Source: an archaeon
Lineage (GTDB): Archaea; Nanobdellota; Nanobdellia; Pacearchaeales; GW2011-AR1
Direction of reading: 5' to 3'
Length of the DNA: 55,201 bases
Assembly (NCBI GenBank): GCA_030620045.1
Contig: JAUXAD010000002.1
Span: 1-55,201 of the forward strand
Made by a program: the position numbers and the translations under genes
In this document: piece by piece, positions 3,078 through 46,803 of the stretch
How the letters are laid out: every line of letters starts with the position of its first letter
Position numbering within the stretch: position 1 is the stretch's first letter
The notes under the pieces: model-generated
Told to the model about the DNA's origin: nothing
Seen by the model: only the letters and a program-made list of their open reading frames with translations
The model's database searches: none

Positions 3078-3125
3078 TTTAAAAATTTAAGTGGGATTGG
3101 GAGTATTTTGAGGTTTAAGGTTTAA
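3078..3125 (+). repeat. copy 2 of the aRF1 3'-end repeat (reads FKNLSGIGSILRFKV*)
   Basis: It lies 1140 nt downstream of copy 1. The 7 nt differences give 2 conservative changes (G->S, R->K). The rest are synonymous, including TCT->AGT, both Ser. Confidence 0.85.
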
Positions 3126-3143
3126 AAGATTTAGTTCTTTGTT

Positions 3144-6834: not shown

Positions 6835-7488
6835 ATGGTCAATCAAAAATATATTCTTTTGTATGCGTTGATTTTAACTTTTGTTGTTTTTAATATTGGG
6901 ATATTTATGGGTTATATGCTTGAATCCTCGAGAATTGGCGAGATAAATAAATTGTATTTAGAAGCTGAAATGGAGCTTCTTGACCAGAGAATACAAAAAG
7001 ATGCATTAGAGATTATTGATTTTGATTGTGATGCAATGGTTGAGGAGAATATAAAATTTGCAGATAAAATCTATGAAGAAGCTTTACTCATACAGAGATA
7101 TGAAGATGCGAATAAAATTAATAAAGATGTAATTTTTCAGCATAAGAGATATGATCTTTTGAGAACTTTATTCTGGATTAATAGCATGAGAATAAAAGAA
7201 AAATGCAATTCTAATTATCATAATATTGTTTATTTTTACAAATATAATAATCCTTCAATTGAACAAGAATCTAAGCAGAGATTTTTTTCAAATTTATTAT
7301 CTCAAATAAAGGAAAAATTTGGGAATGAAATTATGTTGATTCCTATAGCAGGAGATAATGATATTTCTTCAATTAACTTGCTATTGGGTAAATATGATAT
7401 AAAAGAATTACCTGTTATTTTAATTGATGAAGAATTTTTAATATATGATTTAGAAAAGAGAGAGGATATTGAAAAGTATCTTGTTTGA
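6835..7488 (+). CDS. hypothetical N-terminally anchored membrane protein
   Basis: 217 aa with one N-terminal TM helix. Starts 2 nt after the GT2 gene stop. Confidence 0.5.
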   Translation: MVNQKYILLYALILTFVVFNIGIFMGYMLESSRIGEINKLYLEAEMELLDQRIQKDALEIIDFDCDAMVEENIKFADKIYEEALLIQRYEDANKINKDVIFQHKRYDLLRTLFWINSMRIKEKCNSNYHNIVYFYKYNNPSIEQESKQRFFSNLLSQIKEKFGNEIMLIPIAGDNDISSINLLLGKYDIKELPVILIDEEFLIYDLEKREDIEKYLV

Positions 7489-7542
7489 TTTATTGTTTTA
7501 TATTATACAAATATTAAAAAATAGATTTAAGTAAGTTATTCT

Positions 7543-8271
7543 ATGGATGAATGTTTCAAATGCGGTGTTTCTGGGAAGAGAATAAGATTGTTTGACGCAA
7601 TTTCTGGGAAAGGAATTGTTAAGATTTGTAAGGAATGTGTTTCTGGGGAAAAGATTCCCCTTATTAAAAAGCCATCTGAAATTTTTACTCGTCCAGTTTT
7701 AAATAGTGGTTTGAAAAAAATGGGAGAAACTGTTTATGAAAAAGTTTCTCGTATGTCTGGATTTGATTCAAAAAATAAGAAATCTGAAGGAGAAAAAGAA
7801 TTTTCGCAGAAACAGGAAACTACTTTGAAGGATATTATAGATAAGAATTTTAAAACTCAAATTAAAGAGGAATTAAAACCAAGGGCTGATTTAGTTGATA
7901 ATTTTCATTGGGTTATTATGAGGGCAAGAAGGTCAAAACACATAACACAGGAGCAACTTGCAGAAGCAATTGTTGAACCAGAAGCAGCGATTAAAATGGT
8001 TGAGAGAGGCATTCTTTCTGAGGAGGGTTATAAGTTCATCAGTAAACTTGAAAATTATTTGGGAATAAAACTTGTGAAAAAGGAATTTGCAGAAAAGATT
8101 GAGGAAAAACCCAAGGAAATTAGCTTTGACTCTGCAACAACTAAGAGTTTAACAATTTCTGATTTGCAAGAAATGAAACGCAGGAAAGAAGAAGAAATAT
8201 TTGAGGAAAAAGAAGACGTATCTCAAGATGAAAATGATTTAATTTTTGGAAAGAGCAATCATAATCTTTAA
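7543..8271 (+). CDS. zinc-ribbon plus HTH protein, MBF1-like
   Basis: N-terminal CxxC...CxxC (CFKCG...CKEC). Central XRE-type HTH (RARRSKHITQEQLAEAIVEPEAAIKMVERG). Longer than a typical aMBF1. Confidence 0.5.
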   Translation: MDECFKCGVSGKRIRLFDAISGKGIVKICKECVSGEKIPLIKKPSEIFTRPVLNSGLKKMGETVYEKVSRMSGFDSKNKKSEGEKEFSQKQETTLKDIIDKNFKTQIKEELKPRADLVDNFHWVIMRARRSKHITQEQLAEAIVEPEAAIKMVERGILSEEGYKFISKLENYLGIKLVKKEFAEKIEEKPKEISFDSATTKSLTISDLQEMKRRKEEEIFEEKEDVSQDENDLIFGKSNHNL

Positions 8272-8295
8272 AAACTAAAAATTGGTAAGTTCATT

Positions 8296-8559
8296 ATGGA
8301 AATTAATGTTCTTGAAAGTTCAAAAGATGAAATTAAATTAGAACTCGGCAGTGTGACAATAGTAGAAATTCTCAGGGTTTACTTAAACAAGGATTCTTCA
8401 GTTACATTTTCAGCATGGAAAAGAGAACACCCGACAGAAAAACCAATGCTTTTAGTTAAAACAAAAGGCAAAACAGCAAAAAAAGCAATAAGTGATGCAG
8501 TTAATTCTATAACAAAAGATTTGGATAAATTGGAAAGTGACTTTAAAAAACTAAAATAG
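8296..8559 (+). CDS. rpoL: DNA-directed RNA polymerase subunit L (Rpo11)
   Basis: 87 aa. MEINVLESSKDEIKLEL...FSAWKREHPTEKPMLLVKTKG fits the Rpo11/RpoL pattern. Confidence 0.7.
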   Translation: MEINVLESSKDEIKLELGSVTIVEILRVYLNKDSSVTFSAWKREHPTEKPMLLVKTKGKTAKKAISDAVNSITKDLDKLESDFKKLK

Positions 8560-8689
8560 ATAAGAAAAATTATTTTAGTTTTTTCAGATTAATGGCTAAA
8601 ATTTGGTTGGTACAAACGTTGCTCCGCAAGTTTGCATGAAGAAGTTGAAGTAAAGTAATGTTTTTATATGTCCTTTCAATAATTATATT

Positions 8690-10936
8690 ATGATTAAAAA
8701 GAGGTTTAACCAAGTTTTATTATTACTAGTATTTATTTTTATAATTGTATTAACTGGAACAGTAAGTGCAGTAACTTACAATTGTACAGATTGCACAAAT
8801 TGTACAAATACAATTGGAAATGCAAGTGCAGGAGATATAGTTCGATTAAACGAATCTATTGCTGATGCTAGTGCAACTTGTATACAGTTTGATGGAAAAG
8901 ATGATATAACTTTTGATTGTTTAGGAAATACAATAGGAGGTGATGTTGCATTTCATATGGATTATGGAATTCGTTTACTTAATACTAATGGCGGTTCTAA
9001 TGCAAACAACATAACGAATTGCAATGTAACTGGATTTTTCTATGGTATTCAGTTATATAGTTCAGATAATAATATTATTACTAACAGTACTTTCAGTGGA
9101 AATAGTTATGGAATTCACCTTAATATGGGGACTGATAATAGTATATTTGCTAATATAACTTCCAATAATAATGCACTTAATGGCTTGTATCTTATACAGT
9201 CGAAGAACAATTCTTTCACAAATATTACAATTAAGGAAAATATACAATATGATTTATATCTCTCTGGCATAGATGTTTGCCAAAATAATTTTAGTAATAT
9301 TCAAGGTTCTGGAGATAGAGATATAGAATTCTATAACTATACTACAACAATTGAACACAAGACGGTTTCTCAACTTGTACTTTGTGAGGCAGACGGTTCT
9401 ACTATTAATAACGTTACCATAGTTGGTTCGGATACACTGGGGAATAATGCGTTATATTCATATAAAACAGACAATTTGATTATTTCAAATATCAACTCTT
9501 CTGACAATTATGATGGTATTAGGCTGAGTGACGGCGATAACAATACATTAATCAATATTACTCTAAATAACAATGCCTATATTGGACTATATCTTGAACG
9601 GACACATAACAATAGTATAACAAATCTAACAGCAAATGATAATACTCAACAAGGAATTTATGTGTATAGTTCAATTAACAATACTTTCATTAATGGCACA
9701 GCAAATAGGAACAAAGATGGTATTAAGTTTGATTTTGATTCACAAAACAACACAGTAAGTAACTTTTATTTGGAAGGCAACAGTGTTTATGGCATATATT
9801 TCTTAGATTCTGGAGAAAACAAACCAGAGTATAATCTTCTTTACAACAATGTCTTTAACAATACAGATAATTATCATAATTCTACAGTTTTAACAAATTA
9901 TTTCAACACAACTGAAACAGTAGGAACAAATATTATAGGTGGTCCTACTATCGGAGGGAATTATTGGACTAATAGTTCAGGAACAGGATTTTCAGATACA
10001 TGTACAGAAACAAATGGTGATGGTATTTGTGATTCTACTTATAGTTTAGATGGCTTGAATTATGATTATCTTCCTCTCACTAATCCTGTATGTGTAGAAT
10101 CTTGGACTTATTCTGCATGGTCTACTTGCACAACAAGCACACAAACAAGGACAGCTACAGATGCCAATTCCTGTGGAACAACAACAGATAGATTAGCTTT
10201 GTCTCAAACATGTACTGTAGAACCTGGGGGAGGTGGAGGAGTAACTTCTGGGCAGCCAACAGAATCACATTCATGGACAGAGATAATACCCGATGAACCA
10301 GCAGAAATGATTATAACTGATCCAGAGATAGATTTAACAACAATAACAATCACAACAACTGAAATTGTTTTAGATGCATCATTGACAGTAACTGCAATTG
10401 ATGTTCTTCCACAGGCAGATATAGAAATAGGTCTTGTTTCAGGAAGTTCATATCAATCATTTAAGATAGAAACAACGGGAATAACTGATGAAAATATAGA
10501 AGAAGCAGTAATAGAATTTAAAGTGGAAAAGTCCTGGGTTGAGGGAGAAGAAGGAATTGCTGAGGATATTTCTCTTTATAGGAAACAGGATAAAGGTAAT
10601 CAATGGGATGTTTTAAGCACAACTTTTGTAAGTGAAGATGAAAATTATTATTACTTTTCTGCAACTTCTCCTGGTTTTTCAATATTTGTGGTGGTAATAG
10701 ATTTATCAGTTTGCAACAATAATGATGTTTGTGAAACTGAAAATGGTGAAGATGAATCAAATTGTCCGAATGATTGTGTATCTGAGAAAAAGGGATTTTT
10801 TGAAATGATTAAATCTTATTTATGGACTGGGATAATATTTGTTTTAGTTATAGCCATTGGTTTAGTAATCATGGTTCTTAGAGGGAAAGAAAGTAAAAGA
10901 TTGAAGCAGATGATGGAATACAAAAGAAAGAAGTGA
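8690..10936 (+). CDS. secreted parallel beta-helix (PbH1/NosD-like) surface protein with C-terminal anchor
   Basis: Signal/TM at the N-terminus. Many N-x-[IL]-x-N-[ST] beta-helix repeats. A PGF-like motif (SPGFSIFVV), a Cys-rich CNNNDVCETENGEDESNCPNDC block and a C-terminal TM helix. Confidence 0.7.
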   Translation: MIKKRFNQVLLLLVFIFIIVLTGTVSAVTYNCTDCTNCTNTIGNASAGDIVRLNESIADASATCIQFDGKDDITFDCLGNTIGGDVAFHMDYGIRLLNTNGGSNANNITNCNVTGFFYGIQLYSSDNNIITNSTFSGNSYGIHLNMGTDNSIFANITSNNNALNGLYLIQSKNNSFTNITIKENIQYDLYLSGIDVCQNNFSNIQGSGDRDIEFYNYTTTIEHKTVSQLVLCEADGSTINNVTIVGSDTLGNNALYSYKTDNLIISNINSSDNYDGIRLSDGDNNTLINITLNNNAYIGLYLERTHNNSITNLTANDNTQQGIYVYSSINNTFINGTANRNKDGIKFDFDSQNNTVSNFYLEGNSVYGIYFLDSGENKPEYNLLYNNVFNNTDNYHNSTVLTNYFNTTETVGTNIIGGPTIGGNYWTNSSGTGFSDTCTETNGDGICDSTYSLDGLNYDYLPLTNPVCVESWTYSAWSTCTTSTQTRTATDANSCGTTTDRLALSQTCTVEPGGGGGVTSGQPTESHSWTEIIPDEPAEMIITDPEIDLTTITITTTEIVLDASLTVTAIDVLPQADIEIGLVSGSSYQSFKIETTGITDENIEEAVIEFKVEKSWVEGEEGIAEDISLYRKQDKGNQWDVLSTTFVSEDENYYYFSATSPGFSIFVVVIDLSVCNNNDVCETENGEDESNCPNDCVSEKKGFFEMIKSYLWTGIIFVLVIAIGLVIMVLRGKESKRLKQMMEYKRKK

Positions 10937-20807: not shown

Positions 20808-20890
20808 TGGCCCCAGAGGGATTTCTTGCTCCCGACCTCACTCAGAATCAAGGGCGATAAAGAGTTTCGTGAAATCGCTCGACCCACGAT
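20808..20890 (-). pseudogene. tRNA-Lys 3' fragment (about positions 48-73) with a 56-nt insertion in the T-loop
   Basis: 20808-20824 is identical to the last 17 nt of tRNA-Lys (20962-20978). ACCCACGA at 20882-20889 matches 20981-20988. The two pieces are separated by the GC-rich module. Confidence 0.6.
20829..20880 (-). repeat. GC-rich dispersed module, Lys-locus copy
   Basis: 37/52 ungapped identity to 33413-33464 (hand count). Shares the terminal AGGTCGGGAG with 46539-46548. Confidence 0.7.
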
Positions 20891-20919
20891 ATGAAACCCT
20901 TTTGAATTTACCTGCCTTC

Positions 20920-20958
20920 AAATTTCTTTCAGAAATTTAATGATGCTTTCAGCATCAT
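20920..20958 (-). other. two adjacent perfect 8-bp hairpins with GAA triloops, just downstream of tRNA-Lys
   Basis: In tRNA sense: ATGATGCT-GAA-AGCATCAT (20958->20940) and AAATTTCT-GAA-AGAAATTT (20938->20920). Confidence 0.7.
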
Positions 20959-20961
20959 AAA

Positions 20962-21067
20962 TGGCCCCAGAGGGATTTGAACCCACGACACCCAGATATC
21001 TCCATCACCTCGAAATAACCTTTCAGTTTAAGAGTCTGGTGCTCTGACCAAGCTGAGCTATGGAGCC
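20962..21067 (-). tRNA. tRNA-Lys(CUU) with an intron of about 31 nt after position 37
   Basis: Hand fold: acceptor GGCTCCA/TGGGGCC, D arm GCTC-AGCTTGGTCA-GAGC, anticodon stem CCAGA/TCTGG, loop CTCTTA[intron about 20998-21028]A. T arm GTGGG-TTCAAAT-CCCTC has one U-U mismatch. Discriminator A. Confidence 0.85.
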
Positions 21068-33368: not shown

Positions 33369-33410
33369 TTATAACCTCTTCTCAACCTTAATGGCAGTTG
33401 GGGCTTCTCC
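33369..33410 (-). repeat. displaced second copy of the herA-like gene 3' end (reads GEAPTAIKVEKRL*)
   Basis: 34/42 nt identical to 33492-33533. All 8 differences are synonymous or stop-to-stop. Confidence 0.9.
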
Positions 33411-33412
33411 AA

Positions 33413-33464
33413 CTCGAGCCCACACTCGTAATTAAGGGTGATAGAAAGACTCGTGTAAACTCTC
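33413..33464 (-). repeat. GC-rich dispersed module, herA-locus copy (within the 81-nt insert 33411-33491)
   Basis: Aligns with 20829-20880 (37/52) and shares TTAATTAC with the Glu-locus copy. Same orientation relative to the adjacent gene. Confidence 0.7.
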
Positions 33465-33491
33465 GCCATGCCAATGGCACTTCGTCTCGGC

Positions 33492-34805
33492 TCAAAGCCG
33501 TTTTTCAACCTTAATAGCAGTTGGGGCTTCCCCACCATGCCAAGTAAATCTTGGGCGTATTCTCATTGGATAAATTCTTTCTGAATTATCATCAAGAATT
33601 ATTGCAGAACCTTTTAAGCTTGGCAAATCATCCATATATTTTTTTATACTCTCAAGAAGATAACTTTGCATAATATGATTAAGGGCTTCTAAATCTGGCT
33701 GGCTAGTAACCCTATGTGAAATAACAATATCAGATTGAGTCATGACATCTGTATGAATTTTCCCTGGCTGTTGTGTCGCCAAAACCACAGAAATCCCAGG
33801 TTGTCGTCCCTCTCTTAATAATTGAATTAATGCGTCTGTTGCAGCTGTTTTTTTGTTTAAGGGTAAGAATTCATGTGCTTCATCTATGAATATCCAAACT
33901 AAAGGGGTTTCTTTTTTTTCTGAAGTTGATGAAAAATCGAGACCTTTTGAGACAGATTCTATTTCTTCTTTTTTTCTTGCGTCCATTCTCTGGTTGAAAA
34001 TCTTTCTTGAAATTAAACTGATGACTAAAGCTCTTACATTAAAAGCTCCGATTGAGCTATAAACACTTAAGTCTAAAACAGAAGTTGTTCCAGCAGAAAT
34101 TAAATCTTTTACTTGTGTTGCTTGCTTTGATTTTTTTGCAAATACCCCCCATGTATCTGCCGCTTCAAACAATCCTATGGCAGCATTTTTAGTTTCTCCC
34201 AAGGTTTTTTCATCCTTCTCTAAATTTGAAATTATTTCTTTAATATTAAATTCTTTTTGCTCTTCTTTTAATCTGGTTATAGTTCTTTCAATTAAAACTG
34301 ATATAGGGTTTGTTATATCTAAACCAAAAGTTATAATCCAATCTTCAGAATTTAGTTCTGTAACATCTAAAGCGAATTTTTCGTCAATAGGAATGCCTTT
34401 TTCTAAGTAATCATCATAATGTCCAAATGGAACAAAAACTTTTGTTGGAAGATTCTTTGATTTCAAATCCCAATCTTGTAATAATTTTTTATCCTTTTCA
34501 TTTGGAAATTTCATAGTCCAATAAATTCCCATTGTATCAAAAATTAAAGATGCAATATTTTGGCTTATTTCTGGGGGGAGGTTGGAAAGTTCTTCTGTTA
34601 TGACTCCTAATGTATATGACTTCCCGCTTCCTCTCTTTCCCGCCACGAGGACAACATGACTTCTTGCTACATCCATGAAAATTTTATTGCTTAGAGAAGT
34701 ATACTGACCCATTTTTACAAAACCTTTTCCAATAAAAATTAATCCTTTTTTACCAAAAACTTCTTTGTCACTTGCGCCTCTTCCAACTATAATATCATAT
34801 GCCAT
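33492..34805 (-). CDS. HerA-like / DUF87 P-loop ATPase
   Basis: Walker A GKRGSGKSYT, Walker B WIFIDEAHEF, downstream ATQQPG motif. 437 aa. Confidence 0.75.
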   Translation of the reverse strand: MAYDIIVGRGASDKEVFGKKGLIFIGKGFVKMGQYTSLSNKIFMDVARSHVVLVAGKRGSGKSYTLGVITEELSNLPPEISQNIASLIFDTMGIYWTMKFPNEKDKKLLQDWDLKSKNLPTKVFVPFGHYDDYLEKGIPIDEKFALDVTELNSEDWIITFGLDITNPISVLIERTITRLKEEQKEFNIKEIISNLEKDEKTLGETKNAAIGLFEAADTWGVFAKKSKQATQVKDLISAGTTSVLDLSVYSSIGAFNVRALVISLISRKIFNQRMDARKKEEIESVSKGLDFSSTSEKKETPLVWIFIDEAHEFLPLNKKTAATDALIQLLREGRQPGISVVLATQQPGKIHTDVMTQSDIVISHRVTSQPDLEALNHIMQSYLLESIKKYMDDLPSLKGSAIILDDNSERIYPMRIRPRFTWHGGEAPTAIKVEKRL

Positions 34806-43380: not shown

Positions 43381-43464
43381 CGCCCTGGCTGGGAATCGAA
43401 CCCAGAGGGTCTGGGGAGACCGGCTGTTTATTAGACAGCTGCCATACCATTAGGCGACCAGGGC
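43381..43464 (-). tRNA. class II (long variable arm) tRNA with discriminator G and apparent anticodon AAT
   Basis: Hand fold: acceptor GCCCTGG/CCAGGGC, D arm GCC-TAATGGTAT-GGC, anticodon stem GCTGT/ACAGC with loop CTAATAA. Variable arm GGTCT-CCCC-AGACC, T arm CTGGG-TTCGATT-CCCAG. Confidence 0.65.
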
Positions 43465-46418: not shown

Positions 46419-46525
46419 TCTACCTCTTTTATTATTTTAATTTGATGGGATAATAATTTATAAAAGTATTGTAACATCCCTGCCTAACTTTCAATCACAA
46501 CATCTAATATTTTCAATATCATAAA

Positions 46526-46620
46526 CGCCCCTGCCGAACTCCCGACCTTGCACGAGTAATTAATATTAGAAGTTTCTCTCTACCACAAAGTCACTCGGAT
46601 TCGAATCTCGGGTTCCCCGA
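46526..46620 (-). pseudogene. tRNA-Glu 3' fragment (T-arm copy plus 3' end) interrupted by the GC-rich module
   Basis: CGCCCCTGCCGA at 46526-46537 is identical to 46654-46665. A T-arm-like TTCGAATCTCGGGT lies at 46600-46613. The module sits between them. Confidence 0.55.
46539..46596 (-). repeat. GC-rich dispersed module, Glu-locus copy
   Basis: Ends with AGGTCGGGAG as in the Lys copy. Shares TTAATTAC with the herA copy, plus the GAG-GA-TT start and GAAACT. Confidence 0.55.
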
Positions 46621-46653: not shown

Positions 46654-46803
46654 CGCCCCTGCCGAGATTCGAACTCGGGTCACCACCGTTCTCCAACAAG
46701 ACAGGTTGCATTAAGATGCATAGACCTTGTCTCTCATCGAGATTTAATCACCTCTCTGTCTAATGTGAGAGGGTGGCATCCTTGGCCTCTAGACTACAGG
46801 GGC
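46654..46803 (-). tRNA. tRNA-Glu(CUC) with an intron of about 77 nt after position 37
   Basis: Hand fold: acceptor GCCCCTG/CAGGGGC, D arm GTCT-AGAGGCCAA-GGAT, anticodon stem CCACC/GGTGG, loop CTCTCA[intron]C. T arm CCGAG-TTCGAAT-CTCGG, discriminator G. Confidence 0.8.

Follow-up and report, generated by a model that had tools for sequence, protein, structure and literature searches.

Positions 20808-20961 (minus strand) of a 55,201-nt stretch of archaeal DNA (contig JAUXAD010000002.1, referred to here as the window) lie directly downstream of a tRNA-Lys(CUU) gene and contain a partial second copy of its 3' end, which is interrupted by a short element that we call X. On the best reading, a small selfish DNA element has left its footprint in this region, which belongs to no tRNA, and the X-bearing Lys copy remains as a nonfunctional pseudo-tRNA remnant. 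X is a member of a large, conserved multicopy family in Pacearchaeota/Woesearchaeota-type DPANN archaea. We consider it reasonably probable that X is a non-autonomous mobile hairpin element and that the Lys fragment is such a remnant, not one half of a split tRNA.

Copies of X were sought with two models. R1, a covariance model of X, was used on the window and on a related-genome sample of 80 loci around the TFS gene (560 kb in total). A strict pattern, CGAGCRAKTTCACG-N(10-40)-GAGTGRGSTYGSGAG, which has 29 positions and leaves four helix positions free, was run on metagenome stretches. In addition, Rfam 15 was searched with the whole window at gathering score and with the tRNA-Lys and tRNA-Glu loci at E values up to 10. 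Loci are cited below by L number. The features of the tRNA-Lys locus are as follows.

20962-21067, minus strand: intact tRNA-Lys(CUU), with exon 1 at 21067-21029, an intron at about 21028-20997 and exon 2 at 20996-20962 (Rfam tRNA model, 54.6 bits; ARAGORN with introns allowed)
20940-20961, minus strand: trailer, TTT followed by hairpin 1 (ATGATGCT GAA AGCATCAT), read from the sequence
20890-20939, minus strand: rest of the spacer, with hairpin 2, ATTTGAAGG, AGGCAGG and an AT-rich linker, read from the sequence
20882-20889, minus strand: "a", a copy of the T-stem 5' strand (TCGTGGGT) forming the left flank of the insertion point (exact 8-nt repeat)
20825-20881, minus strand: element X, Lys copy, with its core CGAGCGATTTCACGA...GAGTGAGGTCGGGAG at 20881-20829 followed by CAAG at 20828-20825 (R1 and strict pattern)
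20808-20824, minus strand: "B", a copy of the 3' part of the T-loop, of the 3' strands of T-stem and acceptor and of the discriminator (AAATCCCTCTGGGGCCA; exact 17-nt repeat)

The insert in tRNA-Lys is 32 nt long and follows position 37, the canonical position of an anticodon-loop intron (Rfam model). The gene was missed by ARAGORN at default settings and detected once introns were allowed. It is the working gene, and the uninterrupted copy by the gene body is the working 3' end. As the sequence-only reading of this DNA had claimed, the last 17 nt of the tRNA (TGGCCCCAGAGGGATTT) occur at 20962-20978 and exactly again at 20808-20824, and the 5' strand of the T-stem (ACCCACGA) occurs at 20981-20988 and exactly again at 20882-20889. 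Each has these two occurrences in the whole window, and a 17-mer would be expected to repeat by chance in 55 kb about 1e-5 times. The repeats are 154 nt apart from start to start, with 137 nt of noncoding DNA in between. The same reading had described the second copy as split and unable to be a tRNA by itself. A discrete inserted module does interrupt the T-loop of the duplicate, and nothing 5' of the T-stem is present; however, the gap spans 57 nt (20825-20881), and the 56 nt (20825-20880) given earlier were not borne out. U55 and C56 are absent from the Lys duplicate, which reads GTGGGT / X / CAAGAAATCCC. TTCAAAT is not regained by any single excision, either here or at L003, L010 and L102.

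The spacer has the anatomy first described for it, beginning with TTTATGAT and containing two 8-bp GAA-triloop hairpins (20940-20958 and 20920-20938) and AGGCAGG at 20911-20917. Hairpin 1 resembles, in sequence, a terminator or 3'-processing hairpin, and its pairing is kept through compensatory changes at the orthologous loci L003, L010 and L102. The segment ATTTGAAGG is antisense to the T-loop TTCAAAT, and AGGCAGG resembles the 3' end of tRNA-Glu, not that of tRNA-Lys. The part of the spacer at 20890-20939 was seen at orthologous tRNA-Lys loci only and is homologous to a stretch after the tRNA-Glu duplicate described below.

The Lys copy of X was matched by R1 with 58.5 bits (E ~1e-16) and fits the strict family pattern. 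At the orthologous locus L003, the trailer, partial copy and insert are all as in the window, and related inserts are present in L005, L010, L030 and L032. The X arrangement is absent in the close relatives L001 and L002 and is arranged differently in L004-L008. Segment "a" reads TCGGGGGT in L003, L010 and L102, agreeing with the tRNA of each, and the duplicates in L010 and L102 differ from the resident tRNA by 1-3 mismatches. Three lineage-specific bases are common to the window's Lys duplicate and its own tRNA, although the window shares its trailer with L003, L010 and L102. As for the wider neighborhood, tRNA-Lys(CUU) adjoins TFS in most relatives (L001-L080), with an orientation relative to TFS that flips repeatedly. 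The cassette of tRNA, trailer and duplicate is inverted as a whole in L003 relative to the window, and L060 has two tRNA-Lys genes 2.2 kb apart with no integrase between them.

The strict pattern was found in at least 120 metagenome stretches. X has at least 135 copies, 44-66 nt long, with 113 distinct sequences among the matches listed; R1 found further copies in 7 of the 80 related genome loci and two to three in the window. In the variable core, at least six conserved families can be told apart. The window and L003 have one of them at the orthologous Lys site, and L010 and L102 have another, which shows exchange between X copies. The literature searched contained no description of X, which, the coverage being incomplete, is weak evidence of novelty. 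Against Rfam 15, only tRNAs passed in the window and at both tRNA loci, every remaining hit having an E value of at least 0.18 and a score far under the gathering threshold; the earlier question of a known RNA at 20808-20961 was thus answered in the negative by this covariance search. C/D-box small RNAs and hammerheads, suggested by GA/CUGA motifs, were rejected by inspection, as the box spacing and the core are wrong. The X family is new relative to Rfam 15, and palindromic gene-entering repeats and tRNA fragments by tRNA genes are known kinds of sequence. What stands out in X is its tandem-G.A hairpin, its polarity toward gene ends and the linked gene-end duplication.

The first and last 16 nt of X pair antiparallel, in the order C-G pair, tandem G.A/A.G, 10-bp helix, tandem G.A/A.G and closing pair. 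Among the matches listed, position 6 faces 11' as A-U (61 sequences), G-C (49), G-U (2) or an A.C mismatch (1), and position 8 faces 9' as U.G (66) or G-C (43) and is unpaired in 4. In 75 aligned X sequences, 94.1% of the cells pair, compared with 86.8% in shuffles, and the arms contain 77 double-change cells versus 28 in shuffles (0 of 500 shuffles as high). Slid registers of the arms give 20-52% pairing. Each of three arm haplotypes occurs with several core families, and the two arms match every time. Several U.G pairs are invariant, and the helix is therefore formable on one strand only. A kink-turn, the motif bound by L7Ae, would have a 3-nt bulge and then tandem sheared G.A pairs between two helices. 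In X, tandem G.A/A.G is invariant at two steps and frequent at a third one in the flanks, and in the covarying register no 3-nt bulge adjoins them.

Two further loci in the window repeat the arrangement seen at tRNA-Lys. The features of the tRNA-Glu locus are as follows.

46654-46803, minus strand: tRNA-Glu(CUC), intact, its intron 79 nt long (45.7 bits in a regional Rfam scan; ARAGORN with introns allowed)
46653-46614, minus strand: spacer, containing a hairpin and a piece of the T-arm in antisense
46613-46598, minus strand: copy "a" (ACCCGAGaTTCGAATC)
46597-46538, minus strand: 60-nt insert, a putative 59-nt divergent X core (46597-46539) and one T at 46538
46537-46526, minus strand: copy "B" (TCGGCAGGGGCG)
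46468-46525, minus strand: trailer with TTTATGAT, a hairpin, GATTGAAAG and AGGCAGGG, homologous to the Lys spacer

This tRNA was missed by default ARAGORN and by the whole-window Rfam scan. The suggestion that the two loci are linked held: both inserts have the form CGAG(C/T)GA...AGGTCGGGAG, and a trailer stretch of about 55 nt is homologous between them. The sequence AGGTCGGGAG has two exact copies in the window, ending the Lys and the Glu inserts. The alignment of the Glu trailer with the Lys spacer scored 59, versus 20.5 +/- 5.7 for shuffles (0 of 2000 reached 59), and the homologous stretch lies on the opposite side of the duplicate at Glu compared with Lys. The Glu insert matched R1 with only 10.5 bits (E = 0.37). 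We take it to be a divergent relative of X because of its CGAG..GA start, its exact AGGTCGGGAG end and the common architecture. It is a clean insertion with no short duplication, and its removal nearly restores the T-arm.

33372-33543, minus strand: third X locus, at the end of an ATPase gene (R1, sequence and open reading frame)

The last 14 codons of a 437-aa ATPase open reading frame (ORF; 33492-34805, minus strand) are duplicated downstream of the intact end (33492-33533). The second ATPase end is split by X (33413-33465) between TTGGCATGG (33466-33474) and GAAGCCCC...GTTGA (33382-33407), and R1 matched 33410-33468 with 36.6 bits (E ~1e-9). The layout is that found at the tRNAs, here at the 3' end of a protein gene.

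We examined the placement of X relative to tRNA genes. Of the nonredundant copies among the matches listed, 37 have a tRNA gene within 350 nt, which makes 38 tRNA-X pairings. X is downstream on the tRNA strand in 29 of these and upstream on the opposite strand in 7; the other two arrangements occur once each. The 5' end of X points toward the tRNA in 36 of the 38 pairings listed, on either side of the gene. Because this polarity is symmetric on both strands and independent of the direction of tRNA transcription, a DNA-level process is favored over one bound to the tRNA transcript. The downstream cases listed span 13 tRNA isotypes and have a single layout, consisting of the intact 3' end, a T-run and hairpin, often an antisense T-loop piece, "a", X and "B". 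Here, "a" is a short sense copy of the 5' part of the T-arm, with a consistent length of about 6-13 nt, and "B" is the remaining T-arm, the acceptor 3' strand and the discriminator, at times reaching 4-20 nt or more into the native trailer (L104, L058, L069 and L189). In the upstream cases this layout is mirrored on the other strand, and X lies within the D-loop of a 5'-end copy. An intact 3' end lies upstream of every X-bearing duplicate listed, and the 3' flank of X is repeated 39-148 nt upstream in 32 of 106 listed copies, versus 8 in the downstream control. In L141, two successive rounds are visible with one X each, and the outer duplicate is more diverged. X is also found without duplication at the tips of unrelated hairpins, in the loop of a second repeat (W), in tandem with other X copies and inside ORFs.

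Splicing does not remove X from mRNA. Five copies within ORFs are read through without loss of frame (twice in PheT of L202, in L132/L162, and antisense in L139 and L205), and an ORF is restored by deleting X in two weak cases at most. Comparison of PheT with X (L202) and without X (window) showed a clean insertion of 54 nt, or 18 codons, GAGCG...GGGAGCAG. The L202 gene (1222-1680) has its two X copies with their 5' arms in the same frame (..SDF(T/A)R..), and both are stop-free.

On these observations, X would be mobile as DNA, probably in the form of a single-stranded hairpin on which an enzyme encoded elsewhere in the genome acts. An insertion in an essential gene end would persist only if the intact end was kept or regenerated upstream, and survival on this condition would yield the recurrent order of intact end, spacer, short flank copy, X and end copy. 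The short and consistent "a", the frequent inverted copy and the presence of one X per duplicate suggest that the duplication is coupled to insertion and did not exist before it. Three candidate routes may be named. The first would be tandem duplication at the junction, where the spacer of L104 is native flank for at least 18 nt. The second would be a small circle carrying a-X-B that integrates by a single crossover, and the third, break repair with snap-back synthesis. We also propose, tentatively and with the proposal standing well short of probable, that X represents an unrecognized class of archaeal mobile element that targets hairpin loops in a fixed polarity and whose insertion is coupled to regeneration of the gene end. 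Such a "self-healing" insertion into the T-loop, or into the D-loop on the other strand, would leave an intact gene and an X-bearing duplicate, and repeated rounds might produce tRNA-end fragments and arrays across Pacearchaeota.

X is not the sole element of such behavior, as follows from two other insert families. Family Y (L049, L051 and L052), ACTTAAAyTC...TTTTAGsA, lies at the T-loop position of a duplicate, and a copy of the tRNA-Lys 3' end comes after it. Family Z (L016, L030 and L158), GAAGGAGTGAGTGGA..CGAATGA..TTCC.GTTTTGAC, lies between a complete tRNA-Lys 3' end and another copy. Separately, tRNA-Lys in L034 has upstream of it a tandem array of five identical 63-nt units (about 7093-7407, minus strand), each unit consisting of tRNA nucleotides 1-23 and a tail complementary to nucleotides 10-23; similar 5'-end arrays were seen in L026, L035 and L038.

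In being multicopy and short and in having inverted terminal repeats (at least 135 copies with covarying, paired 16-nt ends), X agrees with miniature inverted-repeat transposable elements. No target-site duplication of that type was present at the clean insertions (PheT and Glu), and the gene-end repeats measure 12 to about 40 nt or more. At the loci examined, no gene lies between X-like ends as in a parent insertion sequence (IS). An autonomous element was considered where X-like ends lie 0.4-2.3 kb apart and was rejected, as the ends belong to separate, divergent copies of X and the genes in between are ordinary ones. When 800 ORFs from 120 X loci were clustered, only housekeeping families were obtained, with no recurrent recombinase or Y1-transposase-like family.

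Several observations weigh against a mobile hairpin element. No transposase, integrase or candidate enzyme was found beside X or between X-like ends, and no target-site duplication of fixed length is definable, with the boundaries of X shifting by 1-3 nt between sites. X was not found in viral contigs; five matches to a looser pattern there were chance matches in unrelated high-GC DNA, and a viral origin was rejected on this ground. Wherever a site with X is compared with one lacking it, the two come from different species, and no insertion polymorphism within a population was seen. The Lys duplicate carries the lineage-specific bases of its own tRNA in both the window and L003, so that gene conversion or independent formation is needed. 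Conservation of the arms is very strong among diverged genomes, which would also suit a host function. Finally, folding energy gave no support to the Lys X hairpin, with z scores of +0.8 for RNA and +0.6 for DNA and a different minimum free energy (MFE) fold; the copy at 33410 folds as proposed, with z = -0.3. As thermodynamic folding lends no support, it is the covariation that makes the structural case.

A classical integration event at tRNA-Lys is unlikely. Here, a plasmid or virus with an integrase would have entered at the tRNA-Lys 3' end and been mostly deleted to 154 nt, leaving X as an arm-type recombinase site. The 17-nt exact direct repeat could be an attachment core, and comparable repeats occur in relatives. 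Direct repeats of tRNA 3' parts are a known archaeal signature, and such fragments are common (PMC9897764, PMC3293823); in the related loci, 26 of 82 tRNAs bear partial copies of their own ends. However, in none of the roughly 36 cases listed does an integrase, whole or in fragments, lie between the repeats or next to them, and the intervening DNA is only 40-250 nt. The repeat often continues 4-20 nt or more past the tRNA into the trailer, and what lies to the left of X is likewise a copy of the host tRNA. The absence of a recombinase, the repeats that run past the tRNA and the host-derived left piece make an integrase remnant a poor fit, and X is also found in ORFs and unrelated hairpins without duplication.

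We give little credence to X as an RNA-level intervening sequence, a novel intron type or processing signal cut out by a broad-specificity splicing endonuclease or another nuclease, with the second copy acting as an alternative 3' exon or as a scaffold for pre-tRNA processing. Such an origin would agree with the strand-specific structure and invariant G.U pairs, with the co-orientation of downstream copies with the tRNA and with the Glu insert, whose clean removal nearly rebuilds a T-arm. Non-canonical tRNA introns and a broad-specificity endonuclease are described for DPANN archaea (PMC3239211, PMC5829648). The junctions, on inspection, contain no complementary segments for the 3-nt bulge, 4-bp helix and 3-nt bulge of the BHB motif (bulge-helix-bulge). 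The arms pair in one continuous helix that has 2x2 G.A loops, MFE folds show no BHB, and the flanks adjoining X (-1 with +1) pair in 19 of 115 copies, with about 36 expected by chance. A BHB intron was rejected on this geometry and because the exons do not rebuild the T-loop; removing the Lys insert does not restore U54-U55-C56. With two weak exceptions at most, removal of X does not repair a broken RNA or frame either, as the frame is read through and an intact gene end stands upstream. In addition, the seven upstream copies are antisense to the tRNA, the ORF copies are stop-free and in frame in both orientations, which splicing would make unnecessary, and the intact 3' end upstream in all cases listed needs no splicing.

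No more probable is a host-function RNA module, in which X would be a protein-binding hairpin recognized through its G.A pairs and serving 3'-end stability, a stop to read-through or factor recruitment, with the tRNA-like flanks belonging to the functional unit. The very strong conservation of the arm sequences across many genomes, the position of X after gene ends and beside terminator-like hairpins, and the conservation of the Lys trailer in four genomes, where hairpin 1 shows compensatory changes, are consistent with such a role. The patchy distribution among close relatives (absent in L001 and L002, other arrangements in L004-L008) argues against it, as do the copies that lie within ORFs, occur in either orientation, stand in tandem or are nested in other repeats, the cores swapped between orthologous sites and the decay of the flanking tRNA copies.

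The fragment as the 3' half of a split tRNA, for example tRNA-Lys(UUU), trans-spliced to a 5' half elsewhere as in Nanoarchaeum equitans, is essentially refuted by anatomy and has almost no likelihood left, even with UUU and UUC isoacceptors that must be encoded outside the window: such a half would span positions ~38 to 73, but similarity to tRNA-Lys begins at TCGTGGGT, so that the anticodon-stem 3' strand and variable loop are missing, the T-loop is not restorable, there is no GC-rich leader for pairing, no 5' half was found within the 55-kb window, and the same arrangement occurs at 13 isotypes (among the matches listed) and at a protein gene. The split-tRNA or BHB direction put forward earlier for testing therefore finds no support, given the start of the fragment at the T-stem, the T-loop TTCAAAT, the junctions and the lack of a 5' half in the window. 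Lys and Glu are reportedly among the isoacceptor families split in N. equitans, according to Randau et al. in 2005.

Compared with known systems, X recalls two kinds of bacterial repeat. Rickettsia palindromic elements (RPE), reportedly described by Ogata et al. in 2000, and similar small palindromic repeats of bacteria are about 100-150 nt long, are found between genes, within RNA genes and, in frame, within protein genes, where they are translated, and have no transposase in cis. X shares with RPE the short, multicopy hairpin form, the reduced genomes of host-dependent microbes and the in-frame entry into ORFs; unlike RPE, it is archaeal, 44-66 nt long and unrelated in sequence, with G.A pairs in tandem, G.U pairs that do not vary, a strict polarity toward the ends of genes and a tie to gene-end duplication. 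Repetitive extragenic palindromes (REP) and bacterial interspersed mosaic elements (BIME) with a REP-associated tyrosine transposase (RAYT), and IS200/IS605 miniatures, are imperfect, strand-specific palindromes that are thought to be handled in trans as single-stranded DNA hairpins and that occur in tandem or nested. REP are palindromes of 20-40 nt that lie outside genes, carry a conserved 5' GTAG and flank a RAYT gene. X resembles REP/BIME as a mismatched, imperfect and strand-specific palindrome with tandem or nested copies. In contrast to REP, it starts with CGAGC, has no GTAG head and no subterminal hairpin pair, measures 44-66 nt and enters ORFs and tRNA-like loops. No Y1-type transposase was found near X among the ORFs of the 120 X loci.

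Two archaeal phenomena also bear comparison. Archaeal integrative elements leave partial tRNA direct repeats that predictors can miscall, and a route of tRNA-gene disruption has been proposed from them (PMC9897764, PMC3293823). The X loci share with their fragments a partial tRNA copy as a direct repeat beside an intact tRNA, but differ in the 40-250 nt without a recombinase, the T- or D-loop interrupted by a conserved hairpin, the extension into the trailer and the occurrence at a protein-gene end. Archaeal BHB introns at non-canonical positions and split tRNAs are likewise established (PMC3218864, PMC4090602). As with BHB introns, a tRNA loop is interrupted by about 50-60 nt with pairing ends, in a host lineage rich in tRNA introns; the resident tRNA-Lys and tRNA-Glu both have canonical introns. 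Unlike them, X has no BHB geometry, no valid T-loop around it, a redundant copy of the gene end, and antisense and ORF copies that are read through.

A frequent context of X, ..TTCTTAGCGGAGA/X/CAGTGACGAAG.., was considered as a 23S rRNA 5' domain and rejected, as Rfam found no rRNA there; it is hairpin repeat W (..TTCTTAGCGrAGAGCC-loop-GGCTCGwAGCCATTAAT..). W is an intergenic hairpin with several copies per contig (L170 at 7399-9160, L193, L137, L147, L032, L161 and L163). X is nested in the loop of some W copies, and the W site is found with and without X in different genomes. On another X-bearing contig, an RT-16 RNA (RF03019, 98.6 bits), a motif associated with reverse transcriptase genes, lies at L119 3932-4133, about 2.8 kb from the nearest X.

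The window has a GC content of about 30%, and its genes include TFS, Cdc48, PheT and signal peptidase. These genes and the relatives found through TFS place the host among Pacearchaeota/Woesearchaeota-type DPANN archaea. An exact-protein look-up of the TFS gene adjoining tRNA-Lys gave no match. Elsewhere in the window, a tRNA at 43381-43464 (minus strand; Rfam, 54.4 bits) has a 15-nt variable arm and the anticodon loop CUAAUAA and overlaps a mechanically called 73-aa ORF; its anticodon, AAU (Ile by ARAGORN), is unusual for a class II shape. A 54-nt direct repeat, TTTAAAAATTTAGGTGGGATTGG..., occurs at 1938-1991 and 3078-3131, with 83% identity and a distance of 1140 nt.

For annotation, the X-bearing tRNA-end duplicates, the 5'-end arrays and the in-frame inserts of 18-19 codons will confuse tRNA and gene prediction in DPANN archaea. 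The genomes concerned are among the smallest cellular genomes, yet they contain an abundant and highly conserved hairpin repeat, which parallels the RPE. The strict gene-end polarity and the linked duplication point to an undescribed mechanism of transposition or repair. If confirmed, this would provide a testable mechanism for fragments, insertions and rearrangements of archaeal tRNA genes, a question open since split and permuted tRNAs were found. If "self-healing" insertion is also true, it would be a concrete route to the fragmented, duplicated and inverted tRNA genes of DPANN archaea.

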